From NCBI GenBank assembly GCA_963787025.1, contig CAWBBG010000015.1, forward strand, positions 32,990 through 96,989: a stretch of 64,000 bases of DNA, in the 5' to 3' direction. The notes below the pieces were generated by a model that worked only from the letters and a program-made list of their open reading frames with translations, searched no databases and was not told the DNA's origin. The stretch is from an uncultured Chloroflexia bacterium (GTDB taxonomy: Bacteria; Chloroflexota; Limnocylindria; QHBO01). Shown here one piece after another: positions 15,919 to 39,258 of the stretch. The position numbers were made by a program, and so were the translations under genes. How positions within the stretch are numbered: the first letter of the stretch is position 1; each line of letters begins with the position of its first letter.

Positions 15919-15952
15919 CCTTCGGCCCTAATGCTCGCGGGTCGCTCCGCCC

Positions 15953-18900: not shown

Positions 18901-18933
18901 GCCGTGACGTTAGCTCTCCTCCTGCGCCACTTC

Positions 18934-18955: not shown

Positions 18956-18998
18956 ACATTCCCTTGTTTCGCCCCGGCACCCTCGATACGTTGTTCGC

Positions 18999-20559: not shown

Positions 20560-20903
20560 CGAGTCCATCCTCGTCCTTACCCTGAACCCACTGGGAAGCC
20601 TGCGCCCGCTCGCACGCCTAGAAGCCCTGTCGCGCTCCGGAACGTGTCCCCGTCATGTCCGTGTGCGAGAGCCGCGACCGTGGCTCGCACAGGGGCGCGT
20701 CAATCTGGCGTGCTCAACCGCCCGCTTGCTGAACCCCGACATCTCTATAGATATGCGCCTGTGCGGTCAAGGAGGGCGCGTGAAAGCGCATGGCTTCCGC
20801 GCAGGCGGCCAGGATGTCGGCTGCCCTGTGCGTACCCGAGCGGACCATGCAGGCCGAAGCCAGCAGCCGGACGAAGGCGGTGTCACCTTGGTCCTCGCCC
20901 TAG

Positions 20904-21937
20904 TTGTCGTTCCCGCTCACGTTGTTGACAAGTTGAGAGCCCTCGTGCTCGGTATGGGGTTGTCGAAGCTCCATTCCGACGGAGGGCTCTCATGCTCCAT
21001 CGTACGGCCAAGCTGACGCCGTTCGGCCGACGGCTCCTGGTCGATCGGGTCCTGCTCGAGGGCTGGCCGGCCGCGACCGCCGCCGAGCAGCTCGGGGTCA
21101 GCCGGGCGACCGCGTACAAGTGGCTGCGGCGGTACCGAGCCGAGGGCGACGCCGGTCTCGAGGACCGCTCCGCGCGCCCGCTCCACCGGCCTCGGGCGTT
21201 GCCCGAGCGCGAGGTCCGCCGGATCCTGGTCGCCCGGAGACGGCTGCGGGTCGGGCCCCACCGTCTCGGTCCGCTCCTCGGCCATTCCCGCTCGACGGTG
21301 TACGGCGTCCTCCGCCGCCACGGCGTGAGCCGCCTGGCGCATGCCGATCGGCTGACCGGCGTCCCGGTCCGCTACGTCCGGGAGCGTCCCGGCGAGCTGA
21401 TCCACGTCGACGTCAAGCGGCTCGGGCGGGTGCCGCCCGGCGGCGGCCACCGGATGCTCGGCGAGGACGCCCGCAAGCACGTCGGGGCGGGATACGACTA
21501 CCTCCACGTCGCGATCGACGACGCGACCCGGGTGGCGTACGTCGCGGTGCGGCCGGATGAGCAGGCCGCGAGCACGGTCAGCTTCATCGAGGAGGCCGTC
21601 GCGTTCTTCGCCGGGCAGGGCGTCCGGGTCGAGCGGGTGATGACCGACAACGCCTGGACGTACACCCACTCAACCCGCCTCGCCGCCCTGTTCGCCGATC
21701 TCGGCATCCGCCATGTCCGGACCCGGCCCCGGCGTCCCCAGACCAACGGCAAGGCCGAGCGCTTCATCGGGACGATCCAGCGGGAGTGGGCGTACGCCCG
21801 CCTGTTCCGCTCGAACGACGAGCGCCTGGCGACCCTGCCCGGCTGGGTCGACGCCTACAATCGCAGGCGTCCCCACGCCGGGCTCGACGGCCGGACGCCG
21901 CTATCGGTCCTCGTCAACAAGGTCGACGAGAACGACA
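20904..21937 (+). mobile_element. IS481-family insertion sequence with imperfect ~30-bp terminal inverted repeats and a 6-bp target duplication CCTAGT
   Basis: Left end TGTCGTTCCCGCTCACGTTGTTGAC. Reverse complement of the right end TGTCGTTCTCGTCGACCTTGTTGAC. CCTAGT at 20898-20903 and at 21938-21943. Confidence 0.85.
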
Positions 21938-21942
21938 CCTAG
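20992..21942 (+). CDS. IS481-family DDE transposase
   Basis: HTH SRATAYKWLRRY. DDE region IHVDVK..MTDNAW..PQTNGKAERF. The stop codon TAG lies in the duplicated target. Confidence 0.9.
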   Translation: MLHRTAKLTPFGRRLLVDRVLLEGWPAATAAEQLGVSRATAYKWLRRYRAEGDAGLEDRSARPLHRPRALPEREVRRILVARRRLRVGPHRLGPLLGHSRSTVYGVLRRHGVSRLAHADRLTGVPVRYVRERPGELIHVDVKRLGRVPPGGGHRMLGEDARKHVGAGYDYLHVAIDDATRVAYVAVRPDEQAASTVSFIEEAVAFFAGQGVRVERVMTDNAWTYTHSTRLAALFADLGIRHVRTRPRRPQTNGKAERFIGTIQREWAYARLFRSNDERLATLPGWVDAYNRRRPHAGLDGRTPLSVLVNKVDENDT

Positions 21943-22412
21943 TGCCGGAGCAGGCCGGCACCTGCCGCCCTAGCTTTTCGACGAGGCGCAGCACCGACGA
22001 CGGCTCGTCGGGGATGGGCGGCAGGCGTCTGGGCGACGTCCGGAACTCGCGGATCTCGTCCTCCTTACCAGGCAGCGGATTCTCTGTTGGTGCTCCGGCG
22101 CGTTGTCGCCAGGGGGCTATCCGGACCTTGCCGTGGTGGGCCTGCTTGCGAGCCCCTTGTCGCCGCCGGCGTCAACGAGGCGCCGCGATCGTCATGTGCC
22201 AAGTGTGGCCTCGTGATCGAGGTGCGCGAACGGGCCCCGCCATCTTGCACGCGGCCCGACAGGCTCTCCTCGTAGAGGCGGGCGTCCTTCGTTCCCCGAG
22301 TGTTTATTACCCCGGTCGAGAGCATGCATGACGCGGGGGTCGTCCCCGACGCCCACCAGCCAACTGCAAGTCTCATCGGCGTGGATGAAATCCATTCGGC
22401 CAGCCGATGAAG

Positions 22413-22437
22413 GGCAGCCCGCCGACGGCGGGCTGCC
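22413..22437 (-). terminator. strong GC hairpin GGCAGCCCGCC-GAC-GGCGGGCTGCC about 40 nt downstream of the 22480 stop
   Basis: 11-bp perfect stem read directly. Weak T-rich tail only. Confidence 0.5.
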
Positions 22438-22479
22438 TTCTGCCGGGCATGAGTGGTGCGACGCCTTGCCGAGCGGGGC

Positions 22480-22812
22480 CTACGCGGTCGATGACCTCCG
22501 TCGCATGTTTGCCGCTGTGCTCGCGAGACCTGCCACGAGCAGGACTGCGGCACCGACCAGCCATCCGCCGAGATACGGCTCGCTACACGTGCTACACGCG
22601 GGCGGATGGATGGCGAGGAGAATGAGGCTGAGGCCGCCTATCCCCGTCAAGAGGCCCGTTCCAATGACCACGCGGTGGCGCGATACGAGCACGCCCACCA
22701 CGACTACGCCCGCCACTGCCACTCCGAGAACTCCAACTAAGAAGAAGAGCAAAGCAGCCGACGCTCCGAGGAGCGCTCCCAGTGTCCAGAATCCTGAGCG
22801 CGAGATAGTCAT
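22480..22812 (-). CDS. small hydrophobic membrane protein (about 4 TM)
   Basis: ATG 22812 overlaps the TGA of the upstream gene (ATGA). GFWTLGALLGASAALLFFLVGVLGVAVAGVVVVGVLV.. Confidence 0.55.
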   Translation of the reverse strand: MTISRSGFWTLGALLGASAALLFFLVGVLGVAVAGVVVVGVLVSRHRVVIGTGLLTGIGGLSLILLAIHPPACSTCSEPYLGGWLVGAAVLLVAGLASTAANMRRRSSTA

Positions 22813-23579
22813 GGCGACCATGTTCCATACGTCCTGTGTTCCCAGACGGGAGCACAACTGTCCACCGTGTTCGAGTCATAGCTCAGGGTCACGGTCCCAT
22901 TGCCCCGCCCGTATACGCGGTTGTAGTAATAGTACGTCCACGTCGTGGTCGGCCAGCAGAACAGGCTGTTCTTGAAGGTCGCAGTTGTGTTGCCGTAGTA
23001 GTAGGTACAGCTGAGCGAGTGGTAGATGTTGTGCGCCTCAAGCGACCAGCCCGATAGGCCGAAGTACTCAACTAGCTGCTGAGTCGAGCCGCTCAGCGCA
23101 CAGCTGCCGTCCCATTCCCAGGTAATGCGGGTGGTGTCGCCGTTCAGGGTCTTTCCAATAACGTCTTCCCACCAGTTCTTCTGATAGTACCGACTTGTAT
23201 GCGAGATCGAGTCCGGAGCGGCTGACCCGAGAGCGTCGAGGCTAAAGGTTGCGAGAGTAAGCTCTTGGGGGGAGGTGTCTGGTTGAGACGGCACGCCCTC
23301 CTCAACGAGCTTCTTGCAGTGGAGTTGGTCTATCGCAACGTCGCGAACCTCCCACCCGTCAGAAGATGGCCCGAGAGACACGTCCGTTGCATGGAAATGA
23401 CATCCATTCGGAATGCGCTCGCCGAGGACCCAGGAAAGCCGGCTGTTCTCCAGCGGCGCACGCGACCCTTGGAACCACACCAATGAATCGGCTGCACCGT
23501 TCACAGGTGCAGCCTGCGCTATGGACACCCCTCCGAGAAGTAGTGCGAACGCGAAGATACGCAGTCTCCGAATCATCAT
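22809..23579 (-). CDS. secreted hypothetical protein, Tyr/Trp/Cys-rich, no recognised domain
   Basis: GGGAGGGAG RBS before ATGATG. Signal MMIRRLRIFAFALLLGGVSIAQA. C-terminal part CTYYYGNTTATFKNSLFCWPTTTWTYYYYNRVYG. Codon usage less GC-biased than the flanks. Confidence 0.65.
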   Translation of the reverse strand: MMIRRLRIFAFALLLGGVSIAQAAPVNGAADSLVWFQGSRAPLENSRLSWVLGERIPNGCHFHATDVSLGPSSDGWEVRDVAIDQLHCKKLVEEGVPSQPDTSPQELTLATFSLDALGSAAPDSISHTSRYYQKNWWEDVIGKTLNGDTTRITWEWDGSCALSGSTQQLVEYFGLSGWSLEAHNIYHSLSCTYYYGNTTATFKNSLFCWPTTTWTYYYYNRVYGRGNGTVTLSYDSNTVDSCAPVWEHRTYGTWSP

Positions 23580-23862
23580 GCGACTCCCTCCCTGTTGCCC
23601 GCACCCGAGTTGTCCGGCGCACCCAGCTGTCAGTGACTCGGCTCCCTGCCGCGAGGCAGATGCCTCGGTACGGGCATCTACCGGTAACCCTGAGATGGCA
23701 AGAGCCAGACTGTCAAGAGTCGTTTGACCTCGCGGGCGAGACTGACCCGGCGCAGGAGCTGCCGGGCAGATCGACCACCGTCTGTCAGGGGCGGCTGCGC
23801 GCCGCCGAAGGCCAGCCGTGCGGGTAACGATCATCCGAAGGCCGATTGCGCCCGACTTCGGG

Positions 23863-24858
23863 CTACAGTCGGTCGCCGATGCCGAGCCGCCTGGCGGCCG
23901 CGATGGCGCGCTCCCGCTCGGCGCTCTTCGCGTAGCGCGACAGCATCTCGCGGCTGCGCCAGCCCGCGAGGGCCATGACCTCGCCCTCCTGCATGCCGCT
24001 CGATAGCGCCTCGTGGGCATAGGTGTGGCGGAACAGGTGGGCGTGGAGCTGTGGGACCCTCGCGGCGGCACCCCGCCGCCGGAGGACCTGGGCGATCCCG
24101 GAGTCGGTCATCCGGCCCTTCTCGCCCAGCCACAGCCAGGGCGCTTCAGCGCGCGGGTGGCGAGCGCGGAGGCGCAGGTAGCGGTCGAGCGCGCGCACGG
24201 CCTTGGCGCCGAGGTGGACGATCCGCTCGCGCCGACCCTTGCCCATGACCCGCATCAGCCCGGCGTCGAGGTCGAGGTCATTGGTCGCGGGGTCCGCTGG
24301 CGTCCAGCGCAGGTTGGCGACCTCCGACAGGCGGGCGCCGGTGGCGAGGAAGGTGCGCACCAATGCGGCATCCCGGCGATCGGCGAAGGTCGGCCCCTCG
24401 CAGGCGGCCAGGATGCGGCGCAGCTCGTCATCGGTCAGGATCGGTGGCGCGTGCTCGGGCACCTTCGGCTTGTGCATGCGGGCCATGGGGTTGTCGCCCA
24501 GCTCAGCCTCGTCGACCAGCCACACAAAGAACGGGCGGATCCCCGAGCGATTGGCCGCGGTGGCCCGCGTCCAGTGCGCCAGCTGGTCCTCCATGAACGA
24601 TTCGAGGTGTTCGCGGCGAATGGCGGCCACATCGGTCGGCATGCCACGCGCCTCGAGGAATTCAGCCAGCCTGCCGAGCGAGGCGAGATAGGTGCGCTGG
24701 GTGGCGAGTGAGAGGTTCTCGGCGCGCAGATGCCGCGCGAAGCTCGCCACGTTGGCGCCGAGGTCGCCGCGGGGTACCATGACCGGACTGGAGGGGGCTG
24801 ACTGCATCCTGAGACGGCTCTGACGGGTTTCCGAAGACGCGTCGAATTTTCCGCTCAT
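23863..24858 (-). CDS. tyrosine recombinase/integrase (XerC/D-like phage integrase family)
   Basis: Start at ATG 24858 (MSGKFDASS). The track ORF extends spuriously across the tRNA. Catalytic-type motifs ARLSEV, HLFRHTYAH, GWRSREMLSRY. Confidence 0.9.
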   Translation of the reverse strand: MSGKFDASSETRQSRLRMQSAPSSPVMVPRGDLGANVASFARHLRAENLSLATQRTYLASLGRLAEFLEARGMPTDVAAIRREHLESFMEDQLAHWTRATAANRSGIRPFFVWLVDEAELGDNPMARMHKPKVPEHAPPILTDDELRRILAACEGPTFADRRDAALVRTFLATGARLSEVANLRWTPADPATNDLDLDAGLMRVMGKGRRERIVHLGAKAVRALDRYLRLRARHPRAEAPWLWLGEKGRMTDSGIAQVLRRRGAAARVPQLHAHLFRHTYAHEALSSGMQEGEVMALAGWRSREMLSRYAKSAERERAIAAARRLGIGDRL

Positions 24859-24953
24859 AGCGCTGTAGTCAATGCCGAATCTGGTTTTCCGCTCTCTTTG
24901 AGCGTGAAACGCGCGCCCGTAGCTCAGCGGACAGAGCGGATGGCTTCGGACCA
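24395..24953 (+). repeat. 559-bp direct repeat, copy 2 (partner 12533-13091)
   Basis: See copy 1. Confidence 0.9.
24861..24912 (+). promoter_or_regulatory. conserved leader upstream of tRNA-Arg (repeat copy F, presumed to contain the tRNA promoter)
   Basis: CGCTGTAGTCAATGCCGAATCTGGTTTTCCGCTCTCTTTGAGCGTGAAACGC is conserved in all six copies from TGGT(T/C)TTCCGCTC onward. No canonical -10/-35 hexamers were recognised. Confidence 0.35.
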
Positions 24954-24988
24954 TCAGGTCGCGGGTTCGATTCCTGCCGGGCGCGCCA
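24913..24988 (+). tRNA. tRNA-Arg (anticodon UCG), CCA encoded
   Basis: Cloverleaf read by eye: acceptor GCGCCCG/CGGGCGC; D arm GCTC-AGCGGACA-GAGC; anticodon arm GATGG-CTTCGGA-CCATC; variable AGGTC; T arm GCGGG-TTCGATT-CCTGC; discriminator G; CCA. Confidence 0.95.
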
Positions 24989-25148
24989 ATGACATGACTT
25001 CGGGCAGAGCCAAGGCCGGGGGCTTGGTGGCGTGCGAACGCCAGCCGTGCGGCCCACGGTCCCTCGCACCTTGGGCCGATCGGCACGGATGAACGTGCCG
25101 CGTGCCCCTCCCGATCTCGCGGCCGTGCGCCCCACGCTCGGAAGCGTC

Positions 25149-25750: not shown

Positions 25751-25804
25751 TCCCAGGCGAACTGGCATAGCCTCCAGGAGCTCGCCGGACTACGCTGAGC
25801 GCGC

Positions 25805-26926
25805 ATGAACGGGGCTAGCTCGTCCGACCTTGCGCGATGGCGCGCCAACCTCCAGGGGGAGGTCGACGGTGCTGCCGTGTACCGGGGCATGGCCGCCGGT
25901 TGCGACGACGAGCGGCTGCGCGAGCTGTACAGCCGGCTCGCCGAGACCGAGGAGCGGCACGGCGCGCTGTGGCGTGAGCAGATCCTGAACGCGGTGGGTT
26001 CCGTCGAGGTCGCGCCATCGTGGCGGGCGCGGGTGCTGGCAGAGATCGCCCGACGCTTCGGGCCGGGCCTGGTGGCATCCACCATGGCCAGCCAGGAAGC
26101 CGCCTCGCGCGGGATGTACGACGACCAGCCTGAGGCCGCCGGCACCAGCCTTCCCGGCGACGAGCGCTCGCATGCGCGCATCCTGCGAGAGGTCTCCCGC
26201 GGCATGGAGGGCGGTTCACTGGCCCGCTTCGAGGGTCGCCACCGGGCTATCGGCGGCAACGCGTTGCGCGCCGCAGTGCTGGGAGCCAACGACGGGCTGG
26301 TGAGCAACTTCAGCCTGGTGATGGGCGTCGCCGGAGCGGACAGCTCCGGCAAGGCCATCCTGATTGCCGGCTTTGCCGGCCTGCTGGCCGGAGCGCTGTC
26401 CATGGCGCTGGGGGAGTGGCTGAGCGTCCAGAGCGCCCGCGAGCTGTACGCCAACCAGATCCGGATCGAGGCAAACGAGATCGCGGAGATTCCCGAGGAG
26501 GAAGAAGAGGAGCTGCGCCTCATCTACGAGGCGAAAGGCCTGGAGCCCGATGCGGCCCGCCAGCTTGCCCACCGGATCATGACCGGCGACCGGGCATCCG
26601 CCCTCGACACGCTCTCTCGCGAGGAGCTGGGCATCGACCCCGATGAGCTGGGCGGGTCCGCGTGGGTCGCCGCAGGCACATCGTTCGTGCTCTTCAGCCT
26701 GGGTGCCCTGGTCCCCCTCCTGCCATTCCTCTTCCTGCACGGAACCGCGGGGATCGCCGTCTCCGCGACGCTGGCCGGCGTCGCGCTCTTCGCGGTCGGT
26801 GCCGCGATCACGATCGTGACGGGTCAGTCGGCGTTGCGCTCCGGGGCGCGTCAGGTCGCCTTCGGCCTGGCCGCGGCGGCCGTGACGTTCGGCATCGGCT
26901 CGCTCATCGGCAAGGTCATCGCCTAG
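25805..26926 (+). CDS. VIT1/CCC1 family iron/manganese transporter with N-terminal ferritin-like (erythrin) domain
   Basis: N-terminal EVDGAAVYRGMA..ETEERHGALW. VIT core GANDGLVSNFSLVMGVAGA and C-terminal TM segments. Confidence 0.75.
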   Translation: MNGASSSDLARWRANLQGEVDGAAVYRGMAAGCDDERLRELYSRLAETEERHGALWREQILNAVGSVEVAPSWRARVLAEIARRFGPGLVASTMASQEAASRGMYDDQPEAAGTSLPGDERSHARILREVSRGMEGGSLARFEGRHRAIGGNALRAAVLGANDGLVSNFSLVMGVAGADSSGKAILIAGFAGLLAGALSMALGEWLSVQSARELYANQIRIEANEIAEIPEEEEEELRLIYEAKGLEPDAARQLAHRIMTGDRASALDTLSREELGIDPDELGGSAWVAAGTSFVLFSLGALVPLLPFLFLHGTAGIAVSATLAGVALFAVGAAITIVTGQSALRSGARQVAFGLAAAAVTFGIGSLIGKVIA

Positions 26927-26983
26927 CGCGGACGGGAGCCGGGCCCACCGGCGTGCCATGGTGTCATGGGGGAGAATGCATCC

Positions 26984-29374
26984 ATGACCACGACCGCCAC
27001 CTCGGCCAACGGCCCACTCTCCGCGGACGAGCTGCAGCTCATCGACGCCTACTGGCGGGCGGCGAACTACCTGTCGGTCGGCCAGATCTACCTGCTCGAC
27101 AACCCGCTGCTCCGCGAGCCGCTGACCCCCGACCACATCAAGCCGCGCCTGCTCGGGCACTGGGGCACCACGCCGGGGCTGAACCTGATCTACGCGCACA
27201 TGAACCGCGTGATCCGCAACTGGGACCTCGACGCCATCTACGTGACCGGTCCTGGCCACGGAGGTCCCGGCCTCGTGGCGAACGCCTACCTGGAGGGGAC
27301 CTACACGGAGCGCTATTCGACCATCACCCGGGACGAGGAGGGGTTGCACCGGCTGTTCCGCCAGTTCAGCTTCCCGGGCGGGATTCCCAGCCACGTGGCC
27401 CCCGAGACGCCGGGATCCATCCACGAGGGCGGTGAGCTGGGTTATTCGCTGGCCCACGCCTACGGGGCTGCATTCGACAATCCGGACCTGGTGGTCTGCT
27501 GCGTGATCGGCGACGGGGAGGCGGAGACCGGGCCACTCGCCGCCAGCTGGCACGCGAACAAGTTCGTGAACCCGGCGCGGGATGGTGCCGTCCTGCCCAT
27601 CCTGCATCTGAACGGCTACAAGATCGCCAACCCGACCGTCCTGGCGCGCATCCCCGACGAGGAGCTGGTCTCGCTGCTCTCCGGCTACGGCCATCGCGTC
27701 CACGTCGTCGCCGGCGATGACCCGGCCACCGTGCACCAGCAGCTGGCCGCGACGCTCGACACGGTCGTCGACGAGATCGCAACCATCCAGAAGGCCGCGC
27801 GCACCGGCGGGCATGCCGGGAGCACCGCCGGCGATCGTCCGCGTTGGCCGATGATCGTCCTGCGCACGCCGAAGGGCTGGACCGGACCCAAGGTCGTGGA
27901 CGGTCTCCCGGTCGAGGGCACCTTCCGCGCGCACCAGGTGCCTCTCACCCAGGTGCGCACCAACCCCGAGCATCTCGCCATGCTGGAGTCATGGATGCGC
28001 AGCTACCGGCCCGAGGAGCTGTTCGACGCGAGGGGCGCCCTCGCGGAGCCACTGGCGGCCCTCCCGCCCAAGGGGCATCGCCGCATGAGCGCGAACCCGC
28101 ACGCCAACGGGGGCGAGCTGCTGGTCGACCTGCGCTTGCCGGACTTCCGCGATTACGCGGTCCCGGTTGCGAAGCCCGGCACCACGTTCACCGAGGCGAC
28201 CCGGGTGCTGGGCACCCTGCTGCGCGACGTGATCCGCGACAACCCCGACTCATTCCGCCTCTTCGGTCCCGATGAGACCGCGTCGAACCGTCTCTCCGCC
28301 GTCTTCGAGACGACCGATCGGGCCTGGGACGCGGAGATGATCCCGATCGACGACCACCTGGCCCCCGACGGGCGGGTGATGGAGGTGCTCAGCGAGCACC
28401 TCTGCCAGGGCTGGCTGGAGGGCTACCTCCTCACCGGCCGCCATGGCCTCTTCAACTGCTACGAGGCGTTCATCCACATCATCGACTCGATGTTCAACCA
28501 GCACGCCAAGTGGCTGAAGGTGACCCGCGAGATCCCCTGGCGGCGGCCCATCGCTTCGCTGAACTACCTGCTCTCGAGCCACGTCTGGCGGCAGGACCAC
28601 AACGGCTTCTCCCACCAGGATCCGGGGTTCATCGACCACGTGGTGAACAAGAAGGCGGAGGTGATCCGCGTCTACCTGCCCCCGGACGCGAACACGCTGC
28701 TTTCCGTCGCGGACCACTGCCTCCGCAGCCGGAACTACGTCAACGTCATCGTGGCCGGCAAGCAGCCCGCCCTGAACTGGCTCCCGATGGACAAGGCCAT
28801 CATCCATGCCACCCGGGGGGCGGGGATCTGGGACTTCGCGAGCACCGACCACGACGGGGAGCCCGACGTGGTGCTGGCCTGCTGCGGCGACGTCCCGACC
28901 CTCGAGACCCTCGCGGCCGCGGATCTGCTGCGCCAGCGCCTTCCCGACCTGGCGGTCCGCGTCGTGAACGTGGTTGACCTCATGCGGCTCCAGCCGGAGC
29001 GCGAGCATCCGCACGGGATGAGCGACGCGGAATTCGATGCGCTCTTCACCAAGGACCGGCCGGTGATCTTCGCCCACCACGGCTACCCCTGGCTGATCCA
29101 TCGGCTCACCTACCGGCGGGCCAACCACGACAACATCCACGTGCGGGGCTTCAAGGAGGAGGGGACCACCACCACGCCGTTCGACATGGTCATGCTCAAC
29201 GACCTCGACCGCTTCCACCTGGTGATGGACGTCATCGACCGTGTCCCGGGGCTTGCCTCGCGGGCCGGGCACATCCGCCAGGAGATGAGCGACCGACGGC
29301 TCGAAGCGCGGCAGTACACCCGCGAGCACGGCGAGGACATGCCGGAGATCCGCGACTGGACCTGGCCGCACTGA
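26984..29374 (+). CDS. xfp: phosphoketolase (xylulose-5-P/fructose-6-P phosphoketolase)
   Basis: About 796 aa. [49 protein letters not shown]. Confidence 0.9.
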
Positions 29375-29394
29375 GCGGCGTGGCGCGCGCACCG

Positions 29395-30498
29395 ATGCGG
29401 ATCCTGGTCGTCAACGCCGGCTCAAGCAGCCTGAAGCTGCGCCTGATCGACGCGGACGACCGCGTCGCGGGGAGCGTGGACCTGCCCGCACCCGGCGGCC
29501 TGGCGTCCCGGGACCGCGTCTCGGCGGCCATCGACTCGCTCGGCGCGGTCGACGCCGTGGGCCATCGCATCGTCCATGGCGGCGTGGAGTTCCGGGACGC
29601 GGTGCGCCTCGACCCCCGCGTCGTCGAGCGCCTGCGTGCCCTCACGGACCTGGCGCCGCTGCACCAGCCGAAGGCGCTCGCGGCGCTCGACGCGGTCGGG
29701 GAGGTGCTGCCGCACATCCCGGCGTTCGCCTGCTTCGACACCGCATTTCACGCCACCCTGCCCGCGGCCGCCGCCACGTACGCCATTCCCCGCGAGTGGC
29801 GCCGCCGCTGGCCGCTGCGCCGGTTTGGCTTCCATGGCCTCTCGCATGCCTACGCATCGCGGCGCGCAGCCGAGCTGCTCGGGCGGCCGGTGGAGGAGCT
29901 GCGGATCGTCACCTGCCACCTCGGAGCGGGAGCCTCGCTCGCCGCCGTGGCCGGGGGCCGCTCCGTGGAGACGACCATGGGCTTCACACCGCTGGAGGGG
30001 CTGGTCATGGCGACCCGTTCGGGCACGGTCGATCCCGGCCTGGTCCTCTGGCTCCAGGAGCACGTCGGCACCCCGCCGGCCGAGCTGGCCGCGACACTCG
30101 AGGGACGCTCCGGCTTGCTGGGCCTGGCGGGAACGTCCGACATGCGGTCGGTGCTGGCGGCCGAGGCCGCCGGTGACGAGGAGGCTCATCTCGCGGCGGA
30201 GGTCTACCTGCATCGGCTCCGCGCAGGCATCGCATCCATGGCCGCGGCCATGGATGGGCTCGAGGTGCTCGTCTTCACCGGCGGGGTGGGGGAGCACGCA
30301 CCGGAGATCCGGTCGCGCGCCACGACCGGGCTGGGCTTCCTGGGCGTACAGATCGACGGGCAGCGAAACGCCGCGACCGAGCCGCAGGACCGTGAGCTGA
30401 CCGGGGCGGACGCCACGGTCCGGAGCCTTGTCGTCGCGGCACGCGAGGATCTCGAGATCACCCGCCAGGTGCGGGCGCTGCTCGCCCAGGGCACCTGA
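29395..30498 (+). CDS. ackA: acetate kinase
   Basis: MRILVVNAGSSSLKLRL, HRIVHGG, FDTAFH, FHGLSH, GGVGEH. Start at ATG 29395 (the track uses GTG 29380). Confidence 0.9.
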   Translation: MRILVVNAGSSSLKLRLIDADDRVAGSVDLPAPGGLASRDRVSAAIDSLGAVDAVGHRIVHGGVEFRDAVRLDPRVVERLRALTDLAPLHQPKALAALDAVGEVLPHIPAFACFDTAFHATLPAAAATYAIPREWRRRWPLRRFGFHGLSHAYASRRAAELLGRPVEELRIVTCHLGAGASLAAVAGGRSVETTMGFTPLEGLVMATRSGTVDPGLVLWLQEHVGTPPAELAATLEGRSGLLGLAGTSDMRSVLAAEAAGDEEAHLAAEVYLHRLRAGIASMAAAMDGLEVLVFTGGVGEHAPEIRSRATTGLGFLGVQIDGQRNAATEPQDRELTGADATVRSLVVAAREDLEITRQVRALLAQGT

Positions 30499-30663
30499 GG
30501 CGCCCCGGCCGGCAGCGCCGCAGCCGGCGATGGTGTCCGCAGCGTGGCGGTCGGAGCCCGAAGTGGCACGGGTCGAGTGGACCCATCGATGGGGCATCTC
30601 GGCCCGCCCAACTCGGCCGTTCAGCACGTATGCGCACCTGCGAATAGATGCGATGGTTGAGCC

Positions 30664-31026
30664 ATGGACGCGATCTACGAACTGCAGGCCGAGGTCCTCA
30701 AGACGCTCGCCAACCCGCGTCGCCTGGAAATCGTCCATCGGCTGGCCGAAGGACCGCACGAGGTCGGACGGCTCGCCACGGAGATGGGCATTGCACAGCC
30801 CAACCTGAGCCAGCACCTTGCACTGATGCGCACCGCCGGGATCGTCGAAGGCGACCGGGTGGGGCGCGAGGTGCGCTATCGGCTCACAGATACCGCCATC
30901 GTGGCCGCCTGCGGTCTCATGCGCGGAGTGCTCGAGCGACGCTTGCAGCGGCTCGCCGACCTGTATCAGCTCGACACGAACGACCGCCCTGCACGGCCGC
31001 GTGTCGTCGAAGGAAACGGCCGCTGA
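30664..31026 (+). CDS. ArsR/SmtB family transcriptional regulator
   Basis: LKTLANPRRLEIVHRLAEGPHEVGRLATEMGIAQPNLSQHLALMRTAGIV. Confidence 0.85.
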   Translation: MDAIYELQAEVLKTLANPRRLEIVHRLAEGPHEVGRLATEMGIAQPNLSQHLALMRTAGIVEGDRVGREVRYRLTDTAIVAACGLMRGVLERRLQRLADLYQLDTNDRPARPRVVEGNGR

Positions 31027-31052
31027 CGCGGCCCTACGAGGTATCTGTACCG

Positions 31053-31466
31053 ATGGACGAGCCTCTCGCCATCACGCTCTTCTCCGGCACCGACGACAAG
31101 CTCACCGCGGCAGCCGTGCTGGTCGCCGGGGCGGCGGCCATCGGACGGCCGGTGCACATCTTCCTCCAGTACTGGGCCCTCGACGCCTTCCGCTTCAACG
31201 CTGCGGAGCGGGCGCTCACGCTTGCACCGGAGGCTGGTGAGGCGGGTCGCGCCGCGGTCGAGGCGCTGGCCGCAGCCGGACAGGCAGGCTGGCGCGAGAC
31301 CCTGGCCCAGGCCAAGGAGATCGGCCAGGTCGACATCCAGGCCTGCTCGCTGTCGATGGACCTCCTGCATCTCACTCCCGACGACCTCGATCCCCTCGTG
31401 GACGGCGTGGAGGGCGTCACCGCCTTCTGGCTCGCCGCCTCCGAGGGCCAGGTCGTCTTCATCTGA
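31053..31466 (+). CDS. DsrE/DsrF-like sulfur-relay family protein
   Basis: LAITLFSGTDDKLTAAAVLVAGAAAIGRPVHIFLQYWAL..IQACSLSMDLL. Intact. Confidence 0.6.
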   Translation: MDEPLAITLFSGTDDKLTAAAVLVAGAAAIGRPVHIFLQYWALDAFRFNAAERALTLAPEAGEAGRAAVEALAAAGQAGWRETLAQAKEIGQVDIQACSLSMDLLHLTPDDLDPLVDGVEGVTAFWLAASEGQVVFI

Positions 31467-31487
31467 GAGCGAAAGGATCCGCGTGAC

Positions 31488-31721
31488 ATGACCTGGAGAT
31501 CACCCAGCACCTAGACGCGCGAGACCTCTCCTGCCCGATGCCGATCGTGAAGACCGCCGTGGCGATCAAGGGGCTCGCCTCGGGCCAGCTGCTGGAGGTC
31601 CTGGCGACCGACCCGGGCTCGACGAAGGACTTCGCCGCCTGGAGCCAAGACGACCGGCAACGAGCTCGTCGAGCAGACGGCCGAGGACGGCGTCTACCGC
31701 TTCGTCCTCCGCAAGAAGTGA
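31488..31721 (+). pseudogene. TusA/SirA-like sulfurtransferase, apparent frameshifts (near 31495 and 31646)
   Basis: LDARDLSCPMPIVKTAVAIKGLASGQLLEVLATDPGSTKDFAAWS, then KTTGNELVEQTAEDGVYRFVLRKK* in another frame. The ATG at 31488 is out of frame with the CPxP core. Confidence 0.7.
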
Positions 31722-31733
31722 AGGACCCACCCA

Positions 31734-32317
31734 ATGACCGTTACGACCAAGCCTGACGCGGTCGATGAGCTGCTGACGACGAGTCGCTCATCGCCGCGAC
31801 CGCCACCGAGCCTGCCAGCGAGGCAGAGGCTCCCAAGAAGACGAACTCGATCATCCTCATCGCCGAGAGCGGTGACCTGGAGAAGACCTGGGCCACCACG
31901 ATCCTGGCCTCGACCGCCGCCGCGTCGGGCATGGAGGTCTCGCATCTTCTTCACCTTCTGGGGCTTCATGGCCCTCGTGAAGCCGGAGAAGCGGACCTTC
32001 GGCGAGAACTGGATGCAGAAGATGATGTCGGTCATGAATCGACCCGGCATCGATCACCTCAAGCTCATCCGCATGAACTTCATGGGCATGGGCCCCTGGA
32101 TGATGGGCAAGCTCGCCAAGCAGTACGGCGTTGCCAAGCCCGGCGAGCTGCTCGAGATGGCCATGGCCATGGGCGTGAAGTTCCTGCCCTGCCAGATGAG
32201 CATGGACATGTTCGGCCTCAAGCGCGAGGACCTGATCGACGGGCATCGACGAGCCGGTGGGCGCGGCGACCGTGCTCGGCCATGATCGCCGACGGAACCC
32301 CGGCCCTCTTCATCTGA
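31734..32317 (+). pseudogene. DsrE-like/peroxiredoxin-like sulfur module protein, about four apparent frameshifts
   Basis: Segments MTVTTKPDAVDELL, DDESLIAATATEPASEAEAPKKTNSIILIAESGDLEKTWATTILASTAAASGMEV, RIFFTFWGFMALVKPEK..LKREDLIDG, IDEPVGAATVLG and MIADGTPALFI* lie in alternating frames. Confidence 0.7.
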
Positions 32318-32337
32318 CCCCGAAAGGACGGACCGAC

Positions 32338-32592
32338 ATGCTCGAGAGAATCTCGAGCGTCTCCATCACCCGCACCATCGACGCTCGCGGCAGCTACTGC
32401 CCGGGCCCGCTGATGGAGCTGATCCGCGCGATCCGCGAGGGAGCCGTGGGCGACGTCATCGCCGTCCTCTCGTCGGACTCAGGGTCGCAAGATCGATATC
32501 CCCAAGTGGGTCGAGAAGGCCGGGCCATCGCCTGGTCGGCATCACGACCGCGCGACGGCTACGACGAGATCGTCGTCGAGAAGCTGCGCTGA
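32338..32592 (+). pseudogene. second TusA/SirA-like protein, three closely spaced apparent frameshifts (about 32488, 32524, 32550)
   Basis: IDARGSYCPGPLMELIRAIREGAVGDVIAVLSSDSGS, KIDIPKWVEKAG, HRLVGITTA and RDGYDEIVVEKLR* occupy three frames and return to the first. Confidence 0.7.
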
Positions 32593-32606
32593 GGAGGCGC
32601 ACGCCC

Positions 32607-33766
32607 ATGCAGCGCATCGTGATTGTCGGCGGCGGGGTCGGCGGCACGCTGATCGCGAACCTGCTCGCCCGGGAGCTGGGCCGGCAGATCGACCGCGGCG
32701 AGGTCAACATGACCGTGGTCGACCGGAGGGCGAGCACGTCTACCAGCCCGGGTTCATGTACATCGCCATGGGGAACCAGAAGCCGGAGGGCCTGGTCCGT
32801 TCCGAGCGCGCGCTGCTCGACAAGCGGGTCCACCTCGAGGTGGGCGAGGTAACCCGTATCGACGACTGAAGGTCAGCTCGTGGAGCTGGCCGGCGGGAGC
32901 GGGTCGAGTACGACCAGCTGGTCCTGGCCAGCGGGTCGCGCATCGTTCCGGAGCTGGTCCCCGGGCTCGCCGAGGAGGCGCATCACTTCTACGGCGCCGA
33001 GGCGGCGCAGCGCTGCGCGACGCCCTCGACGCGTTCACCGGTGGGAAGATCGTGATCGGGATCGCGGGCATGCCCTACAAGTGCCCGCCGGCACCGCTGG
33101 AGGTCTCGTTCCTGATCGAGTCGGAGCTCCGCGAGCGCGGGCTGCGCGAGAAGAGCGAGATCCACTTCTGCTCGCCCATCGGTCGTGCGTTCACCATCGA
33201 GAGCGTGAGCGAGATGGCCACCCCCATCCTCGCCGAGAAGGGCATCGAGCTGCACACCTTCTTCAACGTCGAGTCCATCGACCGCGAGGCGAAGAAGGTG
33301 ATCAGCCTCGAGGGCGAGGAGCTGCCGTACGACCTGCTGATCCTGGTGCCGCCGCACCGCGGCGCGCAGTTCCTGATCGACTCGGGGCTGGCGCCGGCGC
33401 CCGGCGGCTGGCTCCCGACCGACAAGCACACCCTCGAGGTCGGTGGTCGAGCCCAACGTCCACGCCCTGGGCGACGCCACCGATCTGCCGCTCTCGAAGG
33501 CCGGATCGACCGCGCACTTCGAGGCGCCCATCGTGGCGGAGCGCATCGCCGCGGCCATCACCGGCCGCGAGCCGGCACGAGCAAGAAGGGCCGACTACAC
33601 CGGGAAGGTGATGTGCTTCTTCGAGGTGGGCGACGGCAAGGGAACGCTGCTCCAGTTCGACTACGACCATCCACCCAAGCCGCCGACGCCGAATCGGCTC
33701 TGGCACCTGGGCAAGATCGTCTTCAACAAGACGTATTGGCACACGGTTCCGAAGGGGCGCGTCTGA
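32607..33766 (+). pseudogene. sulfide:quinone oxidoreductase-like FAD-dependent oxidoreductase, at least five apparent frameshifts
   Basis: MQRIVIVGGGVGGTLIANLLAREL (Rossmann). Then EGEHVYQPGFMYIAMGNQKPEGL.., EGQLVELAGGSG, VEYDQLVLASGSRIVPE.., GKIVIGIAGMPYKCPPAPLEVSFL..DKHTLEV and VEPNVHALGDATDLPLSKAGSTAHFEA..YWHTVPKGRV* are distributed over all three frames. Confidence 0.75.
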
Positions 33767-33875
33767 CCAACCAGCCGTCGCCGCAGCGGCGACGGACCTC
33801 GGCGCCATCCTCGACGCCCGTGTCGCCCGGCCTGCAGGGTCGTGGTCGGCGCGGGCGTCGCCCGTGGTCGCGGGA

Positions 33876-34882
33876 TCAGCGATGGTCCGGGAGCAGGACG
33901 GCGGCGCCGGCACCGATCCGGCCGGACTCGAGGTCGGCGAGCGCCGTTGACGCCCGGTCGAGCGGGTACGCCGTCGGGTTCGTGGCGATCCCGATCTCGC
34001 CGGCGATCTGCAGGAACTCGCGGGCGTCGGCCCGGGTGACGTTGGCGACCGACACGATGCCCCGCTCCCACCACAGGTCGTCGTAGTCGAAGGCGGGGAT
34101 GCCGTCGAGGTGAATGGCGTTGATGGCCACGCGTTGCGCCACGGTCGAGCGCCCGCAGTGCGTCGAGCACCACGGATCCAACCGGGGCGAAGGTCACCGC
34201 CGCGTCGAGCGGCACCGGTGGGCGCTCGCCGGAGTCGCCGGCCCAGACGGCTCCCATGGCCAGGGCCCGGCGGCGGTCCTCCGCTGAGCGGCTCACCGCA
34301 TAGACCTCGCAGTCCCAGTGGCGCGCGACCTGGATGGCGAGCGAGGCGGACGCACCGAAGCCGTACAGGCCCAGGCGGCCTCCCGGACGGATGCCCGACC
34401 GCCGGAGCGCCCGGTAGCCGATCACCCCGCCGCAGAGCAGCGGAGCCAGCGCGACGGGATCGCCGGTGGGCAGGCGCGCCGCAAAGTCGGCCCGCAGCAC
34501 CATCTGCTCCGCGTAGCCGCCGTCGGTGTCCCAGCCGGTGAACCGCGCGTTGGGGCACAGGTTCTCGCGTCCACTCTCGCAGTAGCCGCACCGCCCGCAG
34601 GACTCCGCGAGCCAGAACGCGCCGGCGACGTCGCCCTCCACCCAACCGTCCACGCCGGGGCCGACGGCGACCACCTGTCCCACGACCTGGTGGCCGGGAA
34701 TCACCGGGAGGCGCCGCGCCGGCAGGTCGCCGCGCACCAGCTGCAGATCGGTCCGGCAGCAGGCGCAGGCCAGGACCGAGATCACGATCTCGCCGTGACC
34801 CGGCTCCGGCGTCGGGACGGGCAGCCGCCTCGACGGGCGGCTCGCCCTGGGCGGCGGGGTGGGTGAGGATCTGGGCTTGCAT
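33876..34882 (-). pseudogene. zinc-type alcohol dehydrogenase family protein, two apparent frameshifts (about 34826 and 34132)
   Basis: MQAQILTHPAAQGEPPVEA, LPVPTPEPGHGEIVISVLACACCRTDLQL..PGHQVVG..CGRCGYCESGRENLC..LLCGGVIGYRAL..LDALRALDRG and VAINAIHLDGIPAFDYDDLWWERGIVS..GAAVLLPDHR* lie in different frames. Confidence 0.75.
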
Positions 34883-34899
34883 GGGTGCCTCCGCGCGCT

Positions 34900-36947
34900 C
34901 TACGGCTGGCGGCGAGTGGGCAGGTGGTACGGGACGTCGGCCACGATCGTGTTGTGGCGCGCAAAGAGCCGCAGCTTCAGCCGCAGGGCGGTCTGGTTGT
35001 GCAGGAAGTTCTCCCACCAATGGCGAGGGACGAATTCGGAGAGGACCACCAGGATCGGTCGGGTGGGGTCCTGCTTCTGAGAGTGCGTCCATGTAGGCGA
35101 GCAGGGGACCGATGAGCGCCCGGTACGGCGACTCGACCACGACGAGCTCGGTCGCCCCCGCCCACGCTGGCCAGCGCTCGCGGAGGGCGGCGGCGGTCGC
35201 GGGATCGTTCGTGACGTGCACGGCGGTCGGATGGTCCGAGATGGAGTTTGCGAAGGCGATTGCCTGGCGTGCCGGGCGGTCGAGGCGGGCGATGGGCACG
35301 ATCACGATCGGCTCGGTCGCCACCTCGCGGCCATCCGGGATTCGATCGAGCTCGAGGGCATCGCCGATCCCGCGGTAGTGGTGGCGGATGCCGAGCATGA
35401 TCGTGATCAGGATCGGGGCCATCACGATGACGAGCCAGGCTCCCGAGAGGAACTTCGTGGAAGCCACGATCAGGGCGATCACGCCGGTCGTGGCGGCGCC
35501 CAGGCCGTTGATCAGCAGGCCACGGCGCCAGCCGGGGTCGCGGCGCCGCCACCATCGGACCACCATCCCGCTCTGGGACAGGGTGAAGGCCACGAAGACC
35601 CCGAGCGTGTAGAGCGGAATGAGCGCGGTGACGCTGGCCTGGAACACGATGAGCAGCAGGGTCGCCAGGCCCGAGAGGGCAACGATGCCGGTGGTGAACG
35701 CGAGGCGCTCCCCTCGGAAGCCGAACTGGCGCGGCATGAACCCGTCGCGGGCGAGGAACGAGGCGAGGCGCGGGAAGTCCGCGAAGCTCGTGTTCGCGGC
35801 CAGGGCCAGGATCAGGGTCGTCGCCACCTGGAGCACGACGAGGTACGGACCGTCTCCCATCACCTGGCGGGTGATGAGCGAGAGGACCGTGCTGTGCTCC
35901 GATGGATCCGGCACGACGTGGATATAGCTGCCCAGGAAGCTGATCCCCACGAAGAGGCTGCCGAAGATGATCGCGGCCCAGGTGAGCGTGGTTCGCGCGT
36001 TCCGCCACTCCGGCGACTTGAAGGCCGGCACGCCGTCGGAGATAGCTTCGACACCGGTGAGGGCCGCCGCGCCGGAGCTGAACGCGCGAAGGACGAGGAA
36101 GAGCGTGAGGACCGACGTCGCCTCCTCCGCCTTGAGCCAGCCCGCCGGGGCCACGAACGTCCCCAGGTCGCCCAGGACGAAGGCGCGGAAGAGTCCCCAT
36201 CCGATGAGGCCCACGATGGTGGCGATGTACAGGTACGTGGGCGCCATGAAGATGCGTGCCGGACTCGCGGATCCCGCGCAGGTTGCCGAGCATGAGGAGC
36301 GCGACGATGCCGATGGCGATCAGGACCCGATCCGGAAACAGCGAGGGCGCGATGGAGGTGATGGCCGCGACCCCTGCGGAGACCGACACCGCCACCGTCA
36401 GGACGTAGTCGATGAGGAGCGCCGAGGCGGCCACCAGTCCCGAGACGGCCCCCAGGTTGTCGCTCGCCACGATGTAGCTCGAGGCGCCCTCGGGATAGGC
36501 CTTGATCGTCTGCCGGTAGCTGGTTGCGACGATGGCCAGGATGGCCGCGATGACCAGCGTGATGGGCATGACCAGGCTGAAGCTGGTGATCCCGGCCAGC
36601 ACCAGGATCCGCATCATCTCCTCGGTGGCGTATGCGGAGGAGCTGATGTTGTCGGAGCTGAAGATGGCGAGCGCCTTGAGCTTGGTCAGTCGCTCGGTGT
36701 GCTCGCGGTGCGTCGAGATCGGTCGGCCGATGAGTGCGGTCCGCAGGCCGCGCGCGATCCGGCTCGGCAGGCCGGCACGCTGGAGGAAGGTCCGCTCGGT
36801 CGCGATCAGGCCGCCGTCGCCGCGCTCGAACTCCTCTTCGAAGGGCCGAACGATGCGGACGTAGGTATCGCCGGGGCGTGCGCCGCGACGCCGCTCGCGG
36901 ACCTCCAGGAGCGGGTCGATCGGTCGCGGGGGATCGGTGTCAGTCAC
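34900..36947 (-). pseudogene. APC-superfamily permease (about 680 aa type with cytoplasmic C-terminal domain), two apparent frameshifts (about 36255 and 35074)
   Basis: N-terminal part in ORF 34977..36947, up to LRGIRESG. Core in ORF 33302..36247 (MAPTYLYIATIVG..). The C-terminal end ILVVLSEFVPRHWWENFLHNQTALRLKLRLF..YHLPTRRQP* is in a third frame. Confidence 0.7.
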
Positions 36948-36953
36948 GAATGC

Positions 36954-39060
36954 TCATCGAGGACGAGGCGCGGGATCCGTCCCGCCTCCCGGAGGGAGGT
37001 GGTAGGGGATGTCCGCGACGATCGTGTTGCGACGGAAGAAGAGACGAAGCTTCAGACGCAGGGTCGTCTGGTTGTGCAGGAGATTCTCCCACCAGCGGCG
37101 CGGCACGACCTCGGAAAGTACCACCAGGACCGGTCGATCGGGATCCTGGCGGTCCAGGGCGTCGAGATAGGAGAGGAGCGGGCCCACCAGCGCGCGGTAT
37201 GGCGACTCGACGACCACCAGGCGGGTCTTGCCCGCCCAGTCCGGCCAGCGGGCTCGCAGCTCGGCCGCGTCCTCCGGATCGTTGGTGATGTGGACCGCCA
37301 CCGCGTCGTCGGAGATGGAGTTGGCGAAGGCGATGGCCTGCCGCGCCGGGGCGTCAAGGCGGGCGATGGGCACCACCACGGTCGGCGCGACGGCCACCTC
37401 GGCTCCCTCTGCGATCTTCGCCACCGTCACGGAGCGCTGCAGGTGCTGGTAGTGACGCCGGATGCTCATGAGCAGGGCCATGAGCAACGGGACCAGGATC
37501 ACCACCACCCAGGCGCCAGCGGTGAAGTTGCTGACGCCAACCACCATGGCCACCACCGCGGTGGTGGCCGCCCCCAGGCCGTTGATGGCCATGCCGCGGC
37601 GCCACCCGGGCTCGTGGCGGCGGTACCAGCGGATGAACATGCCGCCCTGCGAGAGGGTGAAGGCGATGAACACGCCCAGCGTGTACAGGGGGATCAGGCC
37701 GCTGACGCTCGCGTCGAAGAGCCAGAGGAGAAAGATCGCCATGGCCGCCAGGGCCACGATCCCGGTGGTGAACGCCAGCCGCTCCCCGCGGAAGGCGAAC
37801 TGGCGCGGCATGAAGCCGTCGCGTGCCAGGAACGAGGAGAGGCGCGGGAAGTCGGCGAAGCTCGTGTTGGCCGCGAGCGCCAGCAACAGCGCGGTGGAGA
37901 CCTGCGCCAGGATCAGGACGGGACCGTCCCCGGCGAGGTGCCGGACCAGCTGGCTCAGCACCGTGACCTCCTCGTTGGGGTCGGGGATGATGCCGATCTT
38001 CGTCACCAGGAAGGCGATCCCCACGAACAGGACGGCGAAGATCGAGGTCGCCCAGGTCAGGGTCGTCCGCGCGTTCCGCCATTCCGGTGCCTGGAAGGCC
38101 GGCACCCCGTCGGAGATGGCTTCCACTCCGGTGAGCGCCACGGCGCCCTGGGAGAAGGCACGCAGGATGACGAAGAGCCCCAGGGCGCTGCCACTGGAGG
38201 CGAAGGTCGCCTCCCAGGCTGCCGGCGGAACGTACGTCGGCAGGTCGCCGGAGACCACGCGCCACAGGCCGTAGACGATGAGGGACAGCATCACCGCCCA
38301 GGTACAGGTAGGTGGGCGCCATGAAGATCGACCCTGACTCGCGGATGCCCCGCAGGTTCCCGACCGTCAGCAGCGCCACGAAGCCAATGGTCAGCTCCAC
38401 CTTGATCGGGAAGAGCGACGGCATGATCGAGGTCATCGCCGCCACACCTGCGGAGATGGAGACGGCGACGGTGACGACGTACCCGATGAGGAGGGCCGCC
38501 GCGGCCAGCACGCCCAAACGGTCGCCCAGGTTGTCGCTGGCCACGATGTAGCTGCTGGCGCCCTTGGGGTAGGCGCGGATCGTCTGGCGGTACGACGCGG
38601 TGACGATGGCCAGCATCAGGACGATCAGGCCGGCCAGGGGGAGGGTCAGGCTCAGGGCGCCCACGCTGGCGTAGGCGATCACCCGCATGATCTCCTCGGG
38701 ACCGTAGGCGGACGAGCTGATGTTGTCCGAGCTGAAGATGGCGAGCGCCTTGAGCTTGGTCAGTCGCTCGGTGTGCTCGTGCCTGGAGCTGATCGGCCGG
38801 CCGATCAGGACGGTGCGGATGGCGCGCAGCGTGGCGGTCCAGCCCGTGCGGCCCAGCACCGTCCGCTCGGACGCGACGAGGTGGCCTTCCTCCCCGCGCC
38901 CGAACTCGTCCTCGAACGGGCGCACGATCTTCACCCTGCGGTCGCCGGGCCGCTTCCCCAGGTGTGTCTCGCGCACCTCGAGGAAGGGATCCACCTTTCG
39001 GGAGCCCTCCCCATTCGGGCGTTCGGAATTCGGGCGTTCGTTGTTCTTGCGGGCGGTCAT
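36954..39060 (-). pseudogene. APC-superfamily permease, tandem paralogue of 34900-36947, one apparent frameshift (about 38295)
   Basis: ORF 37354..39060 (..LRGIRESGSIFMAPTYLYLG) continues in ORF 36954..38294 (VMLSLIVYGLW..VLVVLSEVVPRRWWENLLHNQTTLRLKLRLF..). Confidence 0.7.
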
Positions 39061-39258
39061 GCGGTCGCCTATTACAGCACGACGGGCCGGACCACGATTC
39101 GCTCACGCGGCGGACGCGCCGTTGCCCCGCGCTTTGGCGCCGCGCTCGGGCTCAGTGCTGCCCGGGGGTTCCTCGGGCCGCGCAGATGCGCTGTTCGGTC
39201 GTGCGACGCCCACGCTCGAACTCCTTGACCAGGCCGACCGCCTCGATCGCCGGGGCGG

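Follow-up and report, generated by a model that had tools for sequence, protein, structure and literature searches.

A tract of about 7 kb in the window, the 64,000-nucleotide stretch of Chloroflexia DNA analyzed here, carries a dense cluster of short indels, and comparison with related loci indicates that this frameshift cluster is probably a consensus artifact arising from collapsed strain or species variation. Relative to three syntenic relatives with 84–90% nucleotide identity, about 25 indels of 1–2 nt are private to the window and lie between positions 31465 and 38296. Twenty-one of them disrupt a reading frame, and these are spread over seven genes. The original prediction had described a very dense cluster with at least 17 frame changes, so the cluster is confirmed and proves larger than first counted. 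The interval assigned to it, 31488–34882, covers part of the cluster; the events run on to 38296 and add permease frameshifts at 35077, 36255, and 38296. Indels were placed by aligning the window with three syntenic loci, L001, L002, and L003, and by a further alignment of six sequences in which L081 and L153 were included. The genes of the region and the positions of the private events are as follows.

30664..31026, plus strand: ArsR-family regulator, intact; Pfam HTH_5 on the ortholog; 97.5% amino acid identity to L001, no indels
31053..31466, plus strand: DsrE-like protein A, intact; its frame is left undisturbed by the leftmost private indel, which falls within the stop codon (31465)
31488..31722, plus strand: TusA-like 1, Pfam TusA; 1-nt deletion at 31492/3 (codon 2/3), 1-nt insertion at 31647
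31721..31733, no strand: intergenic stretch; private insertions at 31721 and 31730, with a further intergenic insertion at 32318
31734..32317, plus strand: DsrE/DsrF-like protein B, full-length Pfam DrsE_2; deletion at 31774, insertions at 31942, 32241-4, and 32277
32338..32592, plus strand: TusA-like 2; three +1 insertions at 32487, 32520, and ~32551
32607..33766, plus strand: SQR-like flavoprotein (Pyr_redox_2 + FCSD_central); deletions at 32724, 32896, and 33012, insertions at 32865 and 33450
33876..34894, minus strand: Zn-dependent alcohol dehydrogenase (Zn-ADH), convergent, Pfam ADH_N + ADH_zinc_N; 1-nt insertions at 34131 and 34810-2
34900..36947, minus strand: amino-acid permease 1 (AA_permease_2), beyond the interval first assigned; 1-nt insertions at 35077-8 and 36255
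36954..39060, minus strand: amino-acid permease 2 (AA_permease_2); 1-nt insertion at 38296-7, the rightmost event
All private insertions: 31465, 31647, 31721, 31730, 31942, 32241-4, 32277, 32318, 32487, 32520, 32551 (versus the short allele), 32865, 33450, 33574 + 33590-1, 34131, 34810-2, 35077-8, 36255, 38296-7
All private deletions: 31492-3, 31774, 32724, 32896, 33012

Frame-disrupting indels number two in TusA-like 1, four in DsrE/DsrF-like protein B, three in TusA-like 2, five in the SQR-like gene together with a compensated +1/+2 pair at 33574 and 33590-1, two in the Zn-ADH gene, and two and one in the permeases. From TusA-like 1 to the Zn-ADH gene, these values are close to the earlier counts of one to two, about four, three, at least five, and two. 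The shifts had been described as a mix of +1 and −1; both kinds do occur, but not evenly, with about 19 insertions versus 5–6 deletions (~3:1), and no indel is longer than 2 nt. Four or five indels are intergenic, and intergenic and coding indel densities are equal. The insertion at 31465 changes the DsrE-like A stop codon from TAG to TGA followed by G, the insertion at 31647 in TusA-like 1 reads CA(A)(G) and would represent both synonymous Gln codons, and each of the three insertions in DsrE/DsrF-like protein B pairs a G with a C at a third codon position. In TusA-like 2, the three insertions lie within 65 nt, as originally noted, and total +3, so the ORF remains open with about 21 residues scrambled. 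The insertion at ~32551 was called against the short allele of L003 and L153 and coincides with a natural 3-nt indel polymorphism among the relatives. This gene also has an in-frame 3-nt insertion at 32349-51. An in-frame 15-nt insertion in permease 2 (39013-27) is common to L002 and looks genuine.

The clustering of these indels is not due to chance, and its left edge is sharp. In the aligned syntenic loci, no private indel was found in the 5.7 kb upstream of the cluster; given 25 events over 13.3 kb aligned, the probability of zero events in the first 5.7 kb is ~9e-7. In a plot of GC3 by frame, and likewise in a frame HMM, the coding phase jumps repeatedly without stop codons inside 31.49–38.3 kb; outside this span, phase changes fall at stops. 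The GC3-based HMM is usable in the core of 70% GC and uninformative in a low-GC3 mobile island at 5.9–25 kb, where Pfam scans replaced it. The long neighboring FtsX, xfp, aceE, and ptsI genes each occupy one frame, in agreement with the earlier description of them as uninterrupted. Elsewhere in the window, an unrelated frameshift was seen in a korA-like gene at ~203–215. A truncated integrase at 12463–12996 was considered as another frameshift and rejected, since the downstream sequence holds no catalytic domain in any frame and the gene looks like a genuine remnant.

The gene labels given in the original prediction were borne out by Pfam, which yields the order HTH_5, DrsE_2, TusA, DrsE_2, TusA, and Pyr_redox_2 + FCSD_central for the sulfide-handling module. 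On the L001 orthologs, scores were 79 and 74 bits for TusA, 154 and 48 bits for DrsE_2, and 76 bits for Pyr_redox_2, with FCSD_central at 24 bits, under its cut-off of 27. The ArsR-DsrE-TusA-DsrE-TusA-SQR module is kept in at least 80 Limnocylindrales loci.

Beneath the indels, purifying selection on the coding sequence is at a normal level. Once the indels are removed, all affected genes read through with no stops, which extends to every corrected gene the earlier remark that true-frame segments lack in-frame stops, and the CPxP, GGGVGG Rossmann, and zinc Cys/His motifs reported as intact were all found. The corrected proteins share 89–98% amino acid identity with their L001 orthologs. The dN/dS of the frame-corrected genes, a check proposed with the original prediction, is 0.04–0.125 and on par with intact neighbors (unaffected xfp 0.116, ArsR 0.05). 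Window-private substitutions fall mostly at third codon positions, with 19/29 in the SQR-like gene and 57/71 in permease 1.

These values bear directly on the second option raised at the outset, a genuine and very recent pseudogenization of the ~7 kb tract (sulfide module, ADH, and permeases) in a natural population. The original prediction had already pointed out that old pseudogenes should have acquired substitutions and stops. In favor of this option, the indels are present in the deposited public sequence and are not later additions, the hit genes lie side by side and several of them would belong together functionally, and the mosaic identity profile of the tract against L001 suggests past recombination. 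However, 21 frame-disrupting events in seven genes are accompanied by no stop, no rise in dN/dS, and private substitutions dominated by third positions. Mutation-accumulation studies imply that neutral decay with 25 indels should bring about 10 times as many substitutions. Bacterial decay is also deletion-biased and proceeds through multi-nucleotide deletions, whereas insertions predominate here and no event exceeds 2 nt. Moreover, no mutational process can target synonymous polymorphic sites, and the indels are common to no other assembly. With selection undiminished and the indels private, pseudogenization is unsupported and very unlikely.

The privacy of the indels was established by the comparison with orthologous loci that had likewise been proposed as a check. 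None of the 25 events occurs in L001, L002, or L003, nor in L081 or L153 at the sites that these two cover, and the orthologs are intact and unshifted in all five. L001 and L002 have sporadic private 1-nt indels of their own in coding sequence. The scrambled product of TusA2 (P0001) is known from one occurrence, on a 236,607 bp contig at NCBI and ENA; among 4191 homologs there is no second occurrence, and the other 4190 are at most 75% identical to it. A JGI metagenome scan with a permease fragment as query returned no same-species contig (best match 93% amino acid identity), so that a search there for the same indels could only turn out negative. The best match in a scan of genomes, which did not bring up the window's own, had 90% nucleotide identity. 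Intact orthologs also weigh against programmed recoding, in which ribosomal frameshifting or transcriptional slippage would restore the frame. Nothing speaks for such recoding beyond the frame changes within conserved genes themselves; the ~21 sites have no common motif or slippery sequence, shifts are both +1 and −1, intergenic sites are also affected, and the orthologs are all unshifted single ORFs, so that recoding is effectively refuted.

The positions of the indels bear on their origin. They fall on variable, mostly synonymous sites, and both alleles are often written out there. For 10 of 13 single-nucleotide insertions in coding sequence, the added base and the one beside it are the two alleles of one alignment column among the five relatives, and 7 of these 10 sites are at a third codon position. 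Random insertions simulated on the fixed alignment gave a null of 0.20–0.29 (p ~1e-5 to 4e-4), with polymorphism among the relatives serving as a proxy for haplotype differences. Four of five deletions drop a polymorphic column (null 0.25, p = 0.015). Three or four insertions (31647, 32520, 33574, 34812) are without both alleles among the five relatives. A single relative as the source of the second alleles was considered and dropped, as none of the relatives carries all alternative alleles. A shared motif at the indel sites (methylation-linked basecalling error) was also dropped, as none was visible in the site contexts.

This signature distinguishes the cluster from random read-error indels, which could survive if local long-read coverage fell to few-fold and which would involve no strain mixing. 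In favor of such errors, the closest relatives are Microflora Danica soil MAGs that rest on Nanopore data alone, assembled with metaFlye and given a single Medaka round. Isolated frameshifts, found both in the korA-like gene of the window and in the loci L001 and L002, point the same way, as does damage consisting of indels only, with the coding signal preserved. However, random errors should not favor polymorphic sites or spell both alleles, and the observed 10/13 stands against the simulated null. Homopolymers would be the preferred sites of such errors, yet only 4/13 coding insertions extend a homopolymer versus ~0.5–0.59 expected for random insertions; run length is 1 in 9/13, and the longest run is 3. 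Nanopore consensus errors tend toward deletions, whereas insertions are in ~3:1 excess here. Non-synonymous private substitutions are not in excess either. Random read error alone is thus an unlikely source of the cluster.

Collapsed haplotypes, a form of the assembly or consensus problem listed among the original options, are supported by indels at variable sites, purifying selection, and privacy to one contig. The deposited assembly is probably a long-read MAG of a Chloroflexota (Ca. Limnocylindrales) bacterium, as far as platform and pipeline can be inferred. The reads over ~31.4–38.3 kb used for building or polishing the contig would have come from two slightly different haplotypes, belonging either to co-existing strains or to a co-occurring sister species recruited to the conserved module. 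At a single-base difference between the haplotypes, the consensus step would score the mismatched position as one base inserted and one deleted; keeping both bases would then give a +1 insertion and keeping neither a −1 deletion. We infer the presence of two haplotypes in the reads. Features that count against haplotype mixing include the uneven density of events, which are dense at 31.5–33.6 kb and sparse at 34–38.3 kb, and their confinement to ~7 kb. Reads of other species may have been cross-recruited through unusual conservation of the module; this is kept open only as a variant of the main explanation because module identity is only modestly above that of the flanks. In the literature, metaFlye with Medaka yielding this exact artifact was not found, the precedent being FALCON and PacBio, and the Microflora Danica and R10.4 papers give no direct description of strain-induced indels.

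A tandem record of both alleles could also be left by real indels arising in one burst, through aberrant heteroduplex mismatch processing during recombination with a diverged donor, although we regard this as extremely improbable. If it were true, ~7 kb including a sulfide-handling operon would be silenced in a natural Limnocylindrales population, by an undescribed indel-only, mismatch-templated mutational mechanism.

If the cluster is a consensus artifact, the living organism most likely has intact TusA, DsrE, TusA, SQR, ADH, and permease genes. On that reading, a functional module of ArsR, DsrE, TusA, DsrE, TusA, and SQR is almost certainly present, along with the ADH and two permeases. Seven genes of a public MAG would then be mis-annotated or fragmented, at least one artifactual protein, the scrambled TusA2 (P0001), would have entered public collections, and metabolic inference from the deposited genome would falsely call sulfide handling lost. 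The tandem both-alleles signature at synonymous sites needs no reads and can separate strain collapse from pseudogenes and random read errors, and could be used on other long-read MAGs.

The closest precedent comes from early FALCON assemblies, in which haplotype merging puts indels at differing nucleotides (Korlach et al. 2017, PMC5632298). As in the present cluster, single-base indels break conserved-gene frames where merged haplotypes differ, and in the FALCON case they were cured by phasing. Here, the indels lie on variable, mostly synonymous sites, often with both alleles, and the setting differs: the events are confined to ~7 kb in a bacterial metagenomic population, whereas the FALCON case concerned PacBio data from a diploid vertebrate. 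Errors of the homopolymer indel type in Nanopore-only bacterial genomes and MAGs are known to split gene calls (Sereika et al. 2022, PMC9262707). As in the present case, frameshifts then affect conserved genes of long-read MAGs, and the korA-like gene, L001, and L002 offer sporadic examples; the cluster, however, is mostly outside homopolymers, tightly grouped rather than genome-wide, and linked to sites of polymorphism. In genomes under reductive evolution, genuine pseudogene clusters likewise show adjacent genes with multiple frame disruptions, but real decay brings stops, an elevated dN/dS, deletions of greater size, and lesions common to related isolates, none of which is observed here. 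Finally, gene content and order are the same as in known TusA-DsrE-TusA-SQR sulfur-trafficking/sulfide-oxidation modules with an ArsR-family regulator. Nothing out of the ordinary was noted in the module itself, and the damage is found only in the version carried by this assembly.

The window has a GC content of about 70%, with a strong third-position GC signal in coding regions. On a frame plot and in a frame HMM with seven states, the coding phase changes many times at 31.49-38.3 kb where there is no stop codon, whereas in the window's other high-GC parts such changes fall at stops, as ordinary gene boundaries. The ORF list likewise spreads conserved protein segments over different frames in the cluster region. 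Multiple alignments with relatives identified about 25 window-private indels: about 19 insertions, each of 1 nt apart from one 2-nt event, and 5-6 deletions of 1 nt each. Four to five are intergenic (31465, 31721, 31730, 32318) and 21 disrupt the frame, distributed as follows.

Frame-disrupting private indels by gene
TusA1: 2
DsrE/F: 4
TusA2: 3
SQR-like: 5, plus a compensated +1/+2 pair at 33574-33591
Zn-ADH: 2
Permease 1: 2
Permease 2: 1

What looks like a 2-nt deletion at 32551 makes more sense as a +1 insertion against the 3-nt-shorter allele of two related loci (L003, L153). The alignments contained no private indels at 25771-31464 or 38300-39100; under uniform placement, the empty left flank has a probability of about 9e-7. 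The cluster in the original prediction is confirmed by alignment with accurate per-gene counts, but the affected span is about twice the 31488-34882 proposed, with indels sparser toward the right.

In order to compare the orthologous locus, an uninterrupted SQR-like fragment was used in a genome scan, which matched at least 80 loci, all in Chloroflexota or Candidatus Limnocylindrales MAGs. Three were syntenic with the window at 25.8-39.1 kb: L001 (90.3% nucleotide identity), L002 (89% on one side, 85% on the other) and L003 (about 84%). Two further loci, L081 (88.6% over 32.5-39.1 kb) and L153, came from a scan of JGI metagenomes, which returned no same-species contig. L001 carries each gene of this region as one continuous ORF (DsrE-like A, 137 aa; TusA, 77 aa; DsrE/F, 193 aa; TusA, 83 aa; SQR-like, 385 aa; Zn-ADH, 338 aa; permeases, 681 and 696 aa), and Pfam bore out the predicted gene labels. 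Adjoining the sulfur module at 34900-39060 are two tandem paralogous AA_permease_2 genes of about 680-700 aa, each with a C-terminal extension of about 170-190 residues past the permease domain; this arrangement is kept in L001-L003 and many metagenome loci. Two in-frame insertions look genuine: a window-private 3-nt insertion at the TusA2 N-terminus (32349-32351) and a 15-nt insertion near the permease 2 N-terminus (39013-39027), common to L002.

Elsewhere in the window, 5900-25100 is a mobile-element island of low GC3, in which several ORFs have no Pfam match.

Features of the mobile-element island
6179-7381: Fic/DOC gene
7542-7955: PIN toxin
8445-9503: Fic/DOC gene
12463-12996: truncated integrase
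14032-14565: ECF sigma factor
17588-18805: Mutator-family transposase
19600-20556: Replic_Relax protein
20992-21939: IS481 transposase
23866-25086: tyrosine integrase

Very recent pseudogenisation had been offered as one explanation for the cluster. Neutral drift long enough for 2-7 indels per gene would bring roughly ten-fold more substitutions, according to mutation-accumulation data, about three quarters of them non-synonymous and some creating stops; bacterial gene decay is also deletion-biased. With the private indels taken out, the genes contain no stops, share 89-98% amino-acid identity with L001 and show dN/dS of 0.04-0.125, which cannot be told apart from the values for intact xfp (0.116), ArsR (0.05) and DsrE-A (0.044). 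Private substitutions of the window lineage in the affected genes are still concentrated at third codon positions, insertions outnumber deletions about 3:1, and no indel exceeds 2 nt. Recent pseudogenisation is thus not supported.

The insertion sites point instead to a consensus of two haplotypes. A frequent pattern places both variants adjacently in the window where relatives vary at one base.

Insertion sites carrying both variants
31942: window TC[G][C]ATC; relatives TCC or TCG
32244: window GG[G][C]ATC; relatives GGG or GGC
32487: window TC[G][C]AAG; relatives TCC or TCG
34131, minus strand: window AC[G][C]GTG; relatives ACG or ACC
36255, minus strand: window AC[G][C]ATC; third-position column C in L001, L002 and L081, G in L003 within a different codon (TCG)

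The same pattern occurs at 33450 and 32865. Algorithmic classification assigned 10 of the 13 coding 1-nt insertions to this dual-allele type, and seven of these ten lie at a third codon position. When insertions were simulated at random in the corrected sequence, the rates were 0.20-0.24, rising to 0.25 for non-homopolymer G/C insertions only and 0.29 for insertions forced to make a GC or CG pair (binomial tails about 1e-5 to 4e-4 across nulls). Deletions removed a column polymorphic among relatives in 4/5 cases (null expectation 0.25; p = 0.015). Neither a mutational process nor random noise in the reads has any way of singling out sites that are synonymous and variable; a two-haplotype consensus does, because haplotypes disagree only at SNPs. 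No shared motif was visible in the sequence contexts of the indels.

Three insertions totalling +3 leave the TusA2 ORF (32338-32592) open with about 21 residues scrambled, and among 5.8 billion clustered proteins this ORF has one exact match, a singleton (P0001) from one 236,607 bp contig in NCBI and ENA. Because they have the canonical segment, the remaining 4190 matches reach no more than 75% identity. The indels are therefore confined to the deposited assembly. With indels at sites variable among relatives, no signs of decay and a single contig, the artefact option in its collapsed-strain form is supported, and the frameshift cluster is probably no biological feature; an actual burst of mismatch-templated indels is highly improbable. 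Gene callers accept the scrambled TusA2, and an artefactual 84-aa protein sits in public protein collections.

Compared with L001, the window shows mosaic nucleotide identity, at 93-98% over 26.9-29.5 kb and 37.5-38.4 kb and 84-90% over 33.4-37.5 kb, which suggests, from sequence comparison, homologous recombination among Limnocylindrales lineages at this locus (26900-38400). Third-position substitutions private to the window reach about twice the upstream density in affected genes. This would fit a recombined tract that is polymorphic in the sampled population, with strains differing only there; a patch recruiting reads of a co-occurring congener would fit equally, and a merge of two contigs with about 7 kb of overlap would also fit. 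These are variants of one explanation. One soil sample yielded both L001 and L003, so congeners do co-occur.

Among relatives, the nearest are MAGs from Microflora Danica, assembled from Nanopore R10.4.1 reads only with metaFlye and one Medaka round. L001 carries a private 1-nt coding insertion at about 5485 (window-equivalent 28527) that turns xfp into an out-of-frame fusion ORF of 1175 aa, and L002 one in permease 2 (window-equivalent 38399), which sets the background in these MAGs at about one frameshift in every 13 kb. Far from the cluster, a korA-like gene (2-oxoacid:ferredoxin oxidoreductase alpha subunit; 1-495, minus strand) has one frame switch near 203-215, a sporadic indel in a (TC)3 context. 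Within the cluster, only 4 of the 13 coding 1-nt insertions extend a homopolymer, below random expectation. Together with the dual-allele excess and the deletions at polymorphic columns, this argues against ordinary read error. Nanopore consensus errors are homopolymer-biased (PMC9262707), and the cluster insertions lie far from that bias.
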